DNA of 64,000 nucleotides from assembly GCF_003334385.1 (NCBI RefSeq), contig NZ_QOWN01000023.1; one strand, 5' to 3'. The notes beneath the pieces are model-generated. The model was not told where the DNA came from, did not search any database, and saw nothing but the letters and a program-made list of their open reading frames with translations. Positions 26,422 to 50,885 of the stretch are shown piece by piece. Position 1 is the first letter of the stretch. Each line of letters opens with the position of its first letter. The translations under genes were made by a program, and so were the position numbers. The DNA comes from Escherichia coli (GTDB lineage: Bacteria > Pseudomonadota > Gammaproteobacteria > Enterobacterales > Enterobacteriaceae).

Positions 26422-27042
26422 GTGGAAATTTACGAGAACGAAAACGACCAGGTAGAAGCGGTTAAACGCTTTTTTGCTGAAAATGGCAAAGCACTGGCTG
26501 TTGGGGTGATTTTGGGCGTTGGCGCACTGATTGGCTGGCGCTACTGGAACAGCCATCAGGTTGATTCTGCACGCTCCGCTTCTCTTGCCTATCAAAATGC
26601 GGTTACCGCAGTGAGCGAAGGCAAACCGGATAGCATCCCGGCGGCGGAAAAATTTGCTGCTGAAAATAAAAATACTTATGGTGCGCTGGCTTCTTTGGAA
26701 CTTGCGCAGCAATTTGTTGACAAAAATGAACTAGAGAAAGCTGCCGCCCAGTTACAACAGGGGCTGGCAGACACGAGCGATGAAAATCTCAAAGCCGTGA
26801 TAAATCTGCGTCTTGCTCGCGTTCAGGTACAGCTCAAGCAGGCTGATGCCGCGCTGAAAACCCTTGATACCATCAAAGGTGAAGGGTGGGCTGCCATTGT
26901 TGCCGACCTGCGTGGTGAAGCATTGCTGAGCAAAGGTGATAAGCAAGGTGCGCGTAGTGCATGGGAAGCAGGCGTGAAAAGCGATGTTACTCCGGCACTG
27001 AGCGAAATGATGCAGATGAAAATTAATAATTTGTCCATCTGA
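26422..27042 (+). CDS. yfgM: Membrane-anchored TPR protein YfgM (SecYEG/PpiD-associated)
   Basis: 206 aa; GTG start; N-terminal TM then TPR-like helices. Confidence 0.9.
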   Translation: MEIYENENDQVEAVKRFFAENGKALAVGVILGVGALIGWRYWNSHQVDSARSASLAYQNAVTAVSEGKPDSIPAAEKFAAENKNTYGALASLELAQQFVDKNELEKAAAQLQQGLADTSDENLKAVINLRLARVQVQLKQADAALKTLDTIKGEGWAAIVADLRGEALLSKGDKQGARSAWEAGVKSDVTPALSEMMQMKINNLSI

Positions 27043-27052
27043 GAGGGACCCG

Positions 27053-28231
27053 ATGCAATTGCGTAAATTACTGCTGCCAGGACTGCTTTCCGTTACCCTT
27101 TTAAGCGGCTGTTCGCTGTTTAACAGCGAAGAAGATGTGGTAAAGATGTCCCCATTGCCAACCGTTGAAAACCAGTTTACGCCGACCACGGCGTGGAGCA
27201 CTTCCGTTGGTAGCGGCATTGGCAACTTCTATTCCAATCTTCATCCGGCACTGGCGGACAACGTTGTCTATGCAGCGGACCGCGCTGGTTTAGTAAAAGC
27301 GCTGAATGCGGATGATGGCAAAGAAATCTGGTCTGTCAGCCTGGCCGAGAAAGATGGCTGGTTCTCTAAAGAGCCTGCATTACTTTCTGGCGGTGTGACC
27401 GTGTCTGGTGGGCATGTCTACATTGGCAGCGAAAAGGCGCAGGTTTACGCGCTGAATACCAGCGATGGTACTGTGGCATGGCAAACTAAAGTCGCGGGTG
27501 AAGCACTTTCGCGCCCGGTGGTCAGCGACGGTCTGGTGTTAATCCACACCAGTAACGGTCAGTTACAAGCGCTGAACGAAGCTGACGGCGCTGTCAAATG
27601 GACAGTTAACCTCGATATGCCTTCGCTCTCTTTGCGTGGCGAGTCTGCGCCGGCAACGGCTTTTGGTGCGGCCGTCGTGGGGGGCGATAATGGTCGCGTC
27701 AGCGCAGTGCTGATGGAACAGGGCCAGATGATTTGGCAGCAGCGTATTTCCCAGGCGACCGGTTCTACCGAAATTGACCGTCTGAGCGATGTTGACACGA
27801 CTCCCGTCGTTGTTAACGGCGTTGTTTTCGCGCTGGCCTATAATGGTAACCTGACGGCGCTTGATCTGCGCAGTGGTCAGATTATGTGGAAACGCGAACT
27901 GGGTTCGGTGAATGATTTCATCGTCGACGGCAATCGCATCTATCTGGTCGATCAAAATGACCGGGTGATGGCGTTGACCATTGATGGCGGCGTTACGCTG
28001 TGGACACAAAGCGATCTGCTGCATCGCCTGCTGACTTCTCCGGTGCTGTATAATGGCAACCTGGTGGTCGGTGACAGTGAAGGTTATCTGCACTGGATTA
28101 ACGTCGAAGATGGTCGTTTCGTTGCCCAGCAAAAAGTTGATAGTTCCGGTTTCCAGACTGAACCGGTTGCCGCTGACGGCAAACTGCTGATCCAGGCAAA
28201 AGACGGAACCGTGTACTCTATTACACGTTAA
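27053..28231 (+). CDS. bamB: Outer-membrane protein assembly factor BamB (PQQ-like beta-propeller lipoprotein)
   Basis: 392 aa; lipobox LSGC; repeated beta-propeller blades. Confidence 0.95.
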   Translation: MQLRKLLLPGLLSVTLLSGCSLFNSEEDVVKMSPLPTVENQFTPTTAWSTSVGSGIGNFYSNLHPALADNVVYAADRAGLVKALNADDGKEIWSVSLAEKDGWFSKEPALLSGGVTVSGGHVYIGSEKAQVYALNTSDGTVAWQTKVAGEALSRPVVSDGLVLIHTSNGQLQALNEADGAVKWTVNLDMPSLSLRGESAPATAFGAAVVGGDNGRVSAVLMEQGQMIWQQRISQATGSTEIDRLSDVDTTPVVVNGVVFALAYNGNLTALDLRSGQIMWKRELGSVNDFIVDGNRIYLVDQNDRVMALTIDGGVTLWTQSDLLHRLLTSPVLYNGNLVVGDSEGYLHWINVEDGRFVAQQKVDSSGFQTEPVAADGKLLIQAKDGTVYSITR

Positions 28232-49632: not shown

Positions 49633-49661
49633 GAGATAGTCATTTGACCGATACTGTGAAA
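49633..49661 (-). promoter_or_regulatory. Sigma-E-type promoter upstream of bepA
   Basis: Minus strand reads GGGAACG-N16-GTCAAA, close to the sigma-E consensus (GGAACTT-N16-TCAAA); bepA is a known sigma-E regulon member. Confidence 0.45.
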
Positions 49662-49823
49662 TATCGTTCCCACCGCGCCGCCTTTGAGTGTAACGGCGAA
49701 GATTAGCCCACTCAAATGACTTTTCAGTTTCCTGAATCCGTCATAAAAAGCGAAGTCTTTTTTGTGACATTTCGATACAATTGCGGATCGCAATCCCGCT
49801 CTTGAGGTTCAGGGAAGGTCTTT

Positions 49824-50885
49824 ATGCTCGAAATGTTGATGCAATGGTATCGCCGCCGTTTTAGCGACCCGGAAGCGATTGCCTTGCTGGTTATTTTAGT
49901 TGCCGGATTTGGCATTATCTTTTTCTTTAGTGGCCTGCTTGCTCCGTTGCTGGTGGCTATTGTGCTGGCCTATTTGCTGGAATGGCCAACCGTGCGTCTG
50001 CAATCTATTGGCTGCTCCCGCCGCTGGGCGACGTCGATTGTATTGGTGGTTTTCGTCGGTATATTGCTACTGATGGCGTTCGTGGTACTGCCTATCGCCT
50101 GGCAACAGGGCATCTACTTAATCCGCGATATGCCGGGGATGCTCAATAAGCTTTCTGACTTTGCCGCCACGTTGCCGCGCCGCTATCCGGCGTTAATGGA
50201 CGCGGGCATTATTGATGCAATGGCCGAAAATATGCGCAGTCGGATGCTGACCATGGGCGATTCGGTGGTGAAAATTTCCCTCGCCTCGCTGGTCGGTTTG
50301 CTGACCATAGCCGTCTATCTGGTGCTGGTGCCATTGATGGTCTTCTTCCTGCTGAAAGACAAAGAGCAGATGCTGAACGCCGTTCGCCGGGTGCTGCCGC
50401 GTAACCGTGGGCTGGCAGGACAGGTGTGGAAGGAGATGAATCAACAAATCACCAACTATATCCGCGGCAAAGTGCTGGAGATGATCGTGGTGGGGATCGC
50501 CACCTGGCTGGGGTTCTTGCTCTTCGGGCTGAACTATTCGCTGCTGCTGGCAGTGCTGGTCGGCTTCTCGGTTCTTATTCCGTACATTGGCGCATTTGTG
50601 GTGACCATTCCGGTGGTTGGCGTGGCGCTATTCCAGTTTGGCGCAGGTACTGAATTCTGGAGCTGCTTCGCGGTGTATCTGATTATTCAGGCGCTGGACG
50701 GCAACCTGTTAGTGCCGGTGTTGTTCTCCGAAGCGGTTAACCTGCATCCGCTGGTGATTATTTTATCGGTGGTGATCTTCGGTGGTTTGTGGGGATTCTG
50801 GGGCGTATTCTTCGCCATTCCGTTGGCGACGCTGATCAAAGCCGTGATTCATGCCTGGCCCGATGGGCAAATCGCGCAAGAATAA
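49824..50885 (+). CDS. perM: AI-2E family transporter PerM (YfgO)
   Basis: 353 aa; multi-TM AI-2E/PerM-family permease. Confidence 0.88.
   Translation: MLEMLMQWYRRRFSDPEAIALLVILVAGFGIIFFFSGLLAPLLVAIVLAYLLEWPTVRLQSIGCSRRWATSIVLVVFVGILLLMAFVVLPIAWQQGIYLIRDMPGMLNKLSDFAATLPRRYPALMDAGIIDAMAENMRSRMLTMGDSVVKISLASLVGLLTIAVYLVLVPLMVFFLLKDKEQMLNAVRRVLPRNRGLAGQVWKEMNQQITNYIRGKVLEMIVVGIATWLGFLLFGLNYSLLLAVLVGFSVLIPYIGAFVVTIPVVGVALFQFGAGTEFWSCFAVYLIIQALDGNLLVPVLFSEAVNLHPLVIILSVVIFGGLWGFWGVFFAIPLATLIKAVIHAWPDGQIAQE

Follow-up and report, generated by a model that had tools for sequence, protein, structure and literature searches.

Misfolded outer-membrane proteins activate DegS and RseP, with the consequence that RseA is degraded and that sigma-E (RpoE, sigma-24) is released. 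The promoters that sigma-E recognises were defined in E. coli from a set of 28 mapped promoters (Rhodius et al. 2006, PLoS Biol 4:e2, PMC1312014): the consensus is GGAACTTTT for the -35 element and (T/C)GGTCAAAA for the -10 element, the spacer between GGAACTT and TCAAA measures 15-19 nt with 16 nt being strongly preferred, the discriminator is 5 or 6 nt long, transcription starts at a purine and the distance from the -35 element to +1 is 25-28 nt, mostly 26 or 27 nt. Later work described promoters that have no T-tract as a weaker class, whose activity is mostly seen when holoenzyme levels are high, and stated that UP elements are not required at sigma-E promoters (Rhodius et al. 2012, PMC3326320).

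The bepA gene, also named yfgC, is already known as a member of the sigma-E regulon and has been included in regulon lists since 2006. Overexpression of rpoE was shown to induce yfgC 2.4-fold and yfgD 1.5-fold, and both genes were marked in that study as earlier reported to be sigma-E regulated by Rhodius 2006 (Bury-Moné et al. 2009, PMC2731931). The pair bepA-yfgD has been called a 'sigma-E-dependent bicistronic operon' in the literature, and further papers state the same regulation. Here, we analysed a stretch of 64,000 nucleotides of E. coli DNA (hereafter the window) that carries this operon and for which a first-pass annotation had proposed a sigma-E-like promoter in front of bepA, and we describe how this site compares with the described sigma-E promoters, how it is conserved and which other transcription starts surround it.

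A match to the sigma-E promoter definition upstream of bepA

An open reading frame of 487 aa on the minus strand of the window (48148-49611) corresponds to BepA, with a score of 742.6 bits against the NCBIfam equivalog NF052400 (cut-off of 570). The gene is annotated in all E. coli genomes, its ATG is at 49611 and the region found upstream of it is 212 nt long. The 501 bases of the window around the motif are 100% identical to E. coli K-12 MG1655, in which bepA occupies positions 2616094-2617557 of NC_000913.3, so that a window position w corresponds to NC_000913.3 position 2616094 + 49611 - w. The region is present in 5426 of the 5426 complete E. coli genomes. The genes at this locus are the following.

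48148-49611, minus strand: bepA (yfgC) coding sequence, from the open reading frame and NF052400; periplasmic M48 protease/TPR protein
47768-48127, minus strand: yfgD (arsC-like oxidoreductase), second gene of the operon, starting 20 nt past the bepA stop
49824-50885, plus strand: yfgO/perM, divergent neighbour upstream of bepA

At the other end of the operon, sub-threshold matches to the Rfam family naRNA4 are found on both strands at 47638-47772 (28-31 bits for a gathering score of 59.5); these fall in the convergent yfgD-hda intergenic region and are typical of REP-type palindromic repeats at the 3' end of an operon.

When the minus strand is read directly, it gives G-GGAACG-ATATTTCACAGTATCG-GTCAAA, that is GGGAACG, 16 nt and GTCAAA, which is exactly the string that the first-pass annotation had reported. 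Its true span is 49643-49671: the interval that had been attached to it, 49633-49661, is of the right length and is shifted by 10 nt toward bepA, so that it misses the -35 element. Similarly, the distance of 25-50 nt from the bepA start that had been given was slightly off, since the motif is found 32-60 nt upstream of the ATG at 49611. It lies on the bepA strand and thus in the right orientation, at a short distance upstream of the gene. The minus strand through the site reads ...GCGCGGTG GGAACGATAT TTCACAGTAT CGGTCAAATG ACTATCTCCA GAAATACAGG ATAGAGGTTA TG, and its elements are as follows.

49664-49670, minus strand: sigma-E -35 element GGAACGA, from direct reading and pattern match
49648-49663, minus strand: spacer TATTTCACAGTATCGG, 16 nt, measured from GGAACTT to TCAAA as in Rhodius 2006
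49643-49650, minus strand: sigma-E -10 element CGGTCAAA, with GTCAAA at 49643-49648
49637, minus strand: predicted sigma-E start, an A, from the spacing rules; position 2616068 of NC_000913.3
49612-49636, minus strand: predicted 5' leader of the sigma-E transcript, including the ribosome-binding region ACAGGATAGAGG (GAGG at 49614-49617)

The consensus match that the first-pass annotation had claimed agrees with the published definition of sigma-E promoters (PMC1312014). The -35 sequence GGAACGATA (49662-49670) has 6 of 9 bases identical to the consensus with its core GGAAC (49666-49670) intact, the heptamer GGGAACG that had been reported being located at 49665-49671, and the -10 sequence CGGTCAAAT (49642-49650) has 8 of 9 bases identical to (T/C)GGTCAAAA. 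The spacer has the length that is the published optimum (16 nt), and the CGG at its 3' end is part of an extended -10 element. The A at 49637 follows a 5-nt discriminator (TGACT) and is found 26 nt past the end of GGAACGA, which leads us to predict that sigma-E-dependent transcription starts at this base with a leader of 26 nt.

Two features that are found at other sigma-E promoters are absent here. The -35 element is followed by GATA, such that there is no T-tract after GGAAC, and an A/T-rich UP element was not found upstream of the -35 element, as the stretch 49673-49702 contains about 37% A+T and no A or T tracts. Since the site has neither a T-tract after GGAAC nor an A/T-rich UP element, the bepA sigma-E promoter is probably of modest strength. 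The 2.4-fold induction of yfgC by rpoE overexpression (PMC2731931) is modest as well. In a scan of the bepA-perM intergenic region for TTGACA-N16-18-TATAAT-like sites (at least 9 of 12 bases), a sigma-70 promoter at the motif was also looked for and no site was obtained. A structured RNA at the site was likewise considered and dropped, the intergenic region having no Rfam match.

Because no other consensus match is present in the intergenic region, we infer that the site is the same as the published yfgC sigma-E promoter. The running text of Rhodius et al. 2006 (PMC1312014) gives no mapped sigma-E start or promoter sequence for yfgC, Rhodius et al. 2012 (PMC3326320) do not mention yfgC, and full-text literature searches with the promoter string and with the genome coordinate returned nothing relevant. 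The list obtained by genomic SELEX with the RpoE holoenzyme does not include bepA either; this says little, because degP is absent from the same list.

Chance expectation of the match

The pattern GGAAC-N18-TCAAA has a single exact match in the 64-kb window (49643-49670, minus strand) for an expectation of 0.10, and at least one match to this core pattern was found in 10 of 100 dinucleotide shuffles of the window. An extended pattern with at most one mismatch was reached by 19 of 100 shuffles. An ad hoc weighted consensus score, for which the bepA site ties for the best in the window, was equalled in 5 of 30 shuffles; since it did not separate shuffled sequence from the site, this score was dropped as support. 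Taken alone, the motif match is not beyond chance at the scale of 64 kb. Once position and orientation are given, the expectation within the 212-nt region upstream of bepA comes, by our own arithmetic, to about 2e-4, and we consider that it is through its position and orientation in this region, together with its conservation, that the match is compelling.

A different reading of these numbers would be that the consensus match is fortuitous and unused, and that sigma-E induces bepA indirectly or via another promoter, such as the one that gives a transcript starting at 49718 (see below). Indeed, 10-19% of the shuffled windows reach the motif match, and certain genes that are induced by sigma-E have no consensus site and may be regulated indirectly (PMC2731931). 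The conservation of the site and the mapped transcription starts both bear on this reading and are described in the two following sections.

Elsewhere in the window, a second sigma-E-like site (GGAACTT-N16-ACAAA) is found at 26697-26725 on the plus strand, inside yfgM (26422-27042) and 356 nt upstream of bamB (27053-28231). Its -10 element lacks the T of TCAAA. The genes yfgM-bamB-der have been reported to be induced by sigma-E (PMC2731931).

Conservation of the bepA promoter motif in Enterobacteriaceae

The region was compared across 80 Enterobacteriaceae loci collected by one BepA scan of species-representative genomes, with BepA identities of 84-99% and with genera including Escherichia, Citrobacter, Enterobacter, Klebsiella, Raoultella, Kluyvera, Kosakonia, Buttiauxella and Cedecea. 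Without any anchor, MAFFT was used to align the 130 nt that precede the ATG (79 distinct upstream sequences). Few columns of this alignment reach 90% conservation: GAAC, GTC..A, the ribosome-binding region together with the ATG, a lone T and the TA.A.T belonging to another hexamer. An unanchored alignment of the whole intergenic region gave the same picture: apart from GAAC, GGTCAAA and a part of this hexamer, almost nothing between the perM-proximal block and the ribosome site is conserved to 90% or more. At the ribosome-binding region of bepA, ACAGGA..G..GTTATG is conserved to at least 90% in the unanchored alignments.

Of the 81 sequences compared, 77 (the window and 76 of the 80 loci) have GAAC-N17-GTC at this same place, and one more has N18 instead of N17. 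Since the analysis anchored on these elements forces GAAC and GTC to align, we base the claim of conservation on the MAFFT alignments made without an anchor, and on the positions that anchoring leaves free. Among the 71 distinct sequences, the G before GTC is kept in 63 and the next three A in 63, 67 and 69, respectively, the position three bases upstream is a pyrimidine in all 71 (GTC-anchored), and an A is found at the predicted +1 offset in 60. In the anchored analysis, the spacer has a mean information of 0.53 bits per position, compared to 1.77 for the -10 element: across the 80 loci, the spacer and the flanks have diverged while both elements were kept. Furthermore, 65 of the 80 loci (4.4 kb each) contain a single GAAC-N17-GTCAAA, which is in every case located on the bepA strand, 31-61 nt ahead of the ATG, when about 0.7 matches would be expected by chance over all 80 loci together (own arithmetic). 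Altogether, these comparisons indicate a genuine sigma-E promoter motif that enteric bacteria have strongly conserved. A fortuitous match would not be expected to have kept its position in 77 of 81 sequences that have diverged in the 16-nt spacer and in both flanks, nor to occur a single time per locus in 65 of 80 loci.

The motif is not identical everywhere. Kosakonia loci read GGTCATA; one of these (L052) has neither GAAC nor GTC, and another (L029) reads GTCAAT; the Franconibacter -10 element is GGTCTTA. In two Pseudescherichia-like loci, those of 'Escherichia sp. ESNIH1' (L056) and of Enterobacteriaceae UBA7338 (L041), the intergenic region is only about 150 nt long and the promoter is absent, which is an apparent lineage-specific loss of the sigma-E control of bepA.

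The other conserved hexamer is TACACT (49687-49692, minus strand), which lies 20-29 nt upstream of the sigma-E -35 element and is strongly conserved: of the 78 loci that have retained the sigma-E motif, 74 read TA[CA]A[CG]T. A GC usually stands in front of the hexamer, and the resulting GCTACACT is similar to a sigma-70/sigma-S -10 element. In most genera, a T(T/G)TTC(A/T) block is found 17 nt upstream of TACACT; in Escherichia, TTGAGT is found at the 17-nt spacing instead, after an interval that is about 10 nt shorter. In L041 and L056, the TACACT block and the sigma-E promoter are both missing and unrelated sequence is in their place.

Other transcription starts in the bepA-perM intergenic region

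Primary 5' ends mapped in unstressed mid-exponential MG1655 cells growing in M9 glucose (Kim et al. 2012, PMC3415461, supplementary file 2) were placed on the window by exact match of their start sequences, which gave three starts in this region.

49718, minus strand: measured bepA start in unstressed cells (PMC3415461), with a 107-nt leader and 16 reads
49789, plus strand: perM start (PMC3415461), with a 35-nt leader, behind a TACAAT -10 element
49632, plus strand: second plus-strand start, assigned to yfgO/perM (PMC3415461), with a 192-nt leader and 17 reads

The start at 49718 shows that the same operon has a separate upstream housekeeping promoter, which looks independent of sigma-E, and that basal expression of bepA comes from this upstream promoter, the sigma-E promoter being a second promoter used under stress. 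A sigma-E-like motif was not found upstream of this -107 start, whose -10 region (GAAACT) is poorly conserved across genera. The unstressed data set of Kim et al. (PMC3415461) contains no start at 49637 (-26), which is what one would expect of a sigma-E promoter that is weak in unstressed cells; direct 5'-end evidence is thus not positive in these conditions. The first-pass annotation had named a transcription start located elsewhere as a finding that would speak against the promoter: there is indeed another start, at -107, in unstressed cells, and it leaves room for a sigma-E promoter closer to the gene.

The same data would also fit with a fortuitous match that is never used, as they place the start at -107 and not at -26 (PMC3415461). 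Nevertheless, the cells were unstressed and the -107 start that would then have to respond to sigma-E has no sigma-E-like motif upstream of it. Considering this together with the conservation described above, we regard it as very improbable that bepA is induced only indirectly or from another promoter, and we retain the site at 49643-49671 as the sigma-E promoter of bepA.

The plus-strand transcript from 49632 would cover the entire bepA promoter region in antisense; its first base falls 5 nt within the predicted sigma-E transcript. A candidate -10 element for it, TATCCT (49618-49623), overlaps the ribosome-binding region of bepA. As for the conserved TACACT hexamer, no measured start in the unstressed data set (PMC3415461) matches it. 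Within the intergenic region, conservation is highest at 49743-49782 (AATTGTATCGAAATGTCACAAAAAAGACTTCGCTTTTTAT on the minus strand), a stretch that is found between the divergent perM start and the -107 start of bepA and that contains the perM -10 element (TACAAT on the plus strand, for the start at 49789) and an A6/T5 inverted tract.

Since several elements are found in this short region, the conserved islands could in principle have another meaning than a sigma-E promoter, and correspond to the site of another factor, for example transcription factor half-sites that are about 21 nt apart or a promoter for another sigma factor, or to a part of the 5' leader of perM starting at 49632. The antisense 192-nt leader that passes through the whole region (PMC3415461) and the conservation of TACACT, which shows that more than one element of the region is constrained, would both be compatible with this. 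However, the conserved letters coincide exactly with the sigma-E logo, and this extends to the G that precedes GTC, to the AAA that follows it and to the A at the predicted +1. The islands form neither an inverted nor a direct repeat, and no Rfam family or structure signal is found there. Nor do the conserved islands match the known consensus sequences of sigma-32, sigma-28, sigma-54 or FecI. In addition, the operon is induced by sigma-E experimentally (PMC2731931). We therefore judge such another factor or leader element to be exceedingly improbable, and keep the sigma-E promoter as our reading of the two islands.

It is conceivable, if rather doubtful, that TACACT, the -107 start and the antisense start at 49632 together make up an undescribed multi-promoter or transcriptional-interference arrangement at the bepA control region. 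If this was the case, it would set how bepA and perM respond to stress.

Variation within E. coli

A 60-nt query covering the promoter has at least 95% identity in 5426 of 5426 E. coli genomes, about half of which have at least one difference. Five variant genomes were sampled, four with point changes and one with a deletion. The point changes are a C to T in the leader (49633), a C to A in the spacer (49658) and, upstream, either a G to T or an additional A; among the four sampled point-variant genomes, none has a change in the -35 or the -10 element. The C to T change at 49633 (minus strand, +5 of the predicted sigma-E transcript) was found in 4 of these 4 genomes and is a common E. coli polymorphism.

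The deletion was found in one of the 5426 genomes, that of E. coli strain A24 (locus L083, NZ_CP028751.1 3648959-3649161). About 185 bp are missing, corresponding to window positions 49663-49847, between two CGAT(A) repeats, and the deletion takes the start codon and the promoter of perM, the upstream promoter of bepA and the sigma-E -35 element, with GGTCAAA being left.

Discussion

We conclude, with a probability of roughly 0.92, that the site described here is the sigma-E-dependent promoter of the E. coli bepA-yfgD operon. The proposal of the first-pass annotation that bepA has a sigma-E promoter at this place is thus borne out by the match to the published definition, the footprint in 80 Enterobacteriaceae loci and the papers on the regulon. 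The motif, its position and its conservation are direct observations on the DNA, and the dependence of the operon on sigma-E is taken from published experiments.

In the model that we propose, free sigma-E would associate with core RNA polymerase and the holoenzyme would then engage the -35 element GGAAC (49666-49670) and the -10 element GGTCAAA (49643-49649). Transcription would most likely start from the A at 49637, the product being a bicistronic mRNA whose leader measures 26 nt, and the synthesis of the BepA protease/chaperone would rise with envelope stress. At least one housekeeping promoter located further upstream (start at 49718) may take care of basal expression, in what would be a division of labour between promoters. 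The strength of the sigma-E promoter, like its exact start, is a prediction made from its elements and their spacing.

BepA is a quality-control factor for the assembly of outer-membrane proteins and of LptD. Through this promoter, bepA would answer directly to the envelope-stress sigma factor, a connection that appears to be maintained across Enterobacteriaceae. The analysis also illustrates that a real regulatory site can be recovered from sequence alone. Because bepA/yfgC has been in sigma-E regulon lists since 2006, the current understanding of its regulation is unchanged, and what is added here is small: a base-level map of the elements, a predicted start, the positions of the other measured starts and natural variants that are devoid of the promoter.

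The closest described system is the published yfgC promoter of E. coli K-12 (Rhodius 2006), for which the organism, the gene and the regulator are the same, and nothing is known to differ. With canonical sigma-E promoters, the bepA site shares the GGAAC core, GGTCAAA, the 16-nt spacer, the 5-nt discriminator, a purine start and the 26 nt to +1. These canonical promoters have a T-tract and often an UP element, whereas the bepA site has GATA and no UP element, which makes it look like the weaker 'Cluster 2' class of sigma-E promoters (PMC3326320), a class to which we would assign it from these features. Tandem arrangements of housekeeping and sigma-E promoters have also been described, rpoD with its sigma-70, sigma-32 and sigma-24 promoters being the example cited in the literature. 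Like these, bepA has a stress promoter near the gene and a separate start (49718) that is used in unstressed growth; it differs in that the GAAACT at the -10 position of the 49718 start is poorly conserved across genera.
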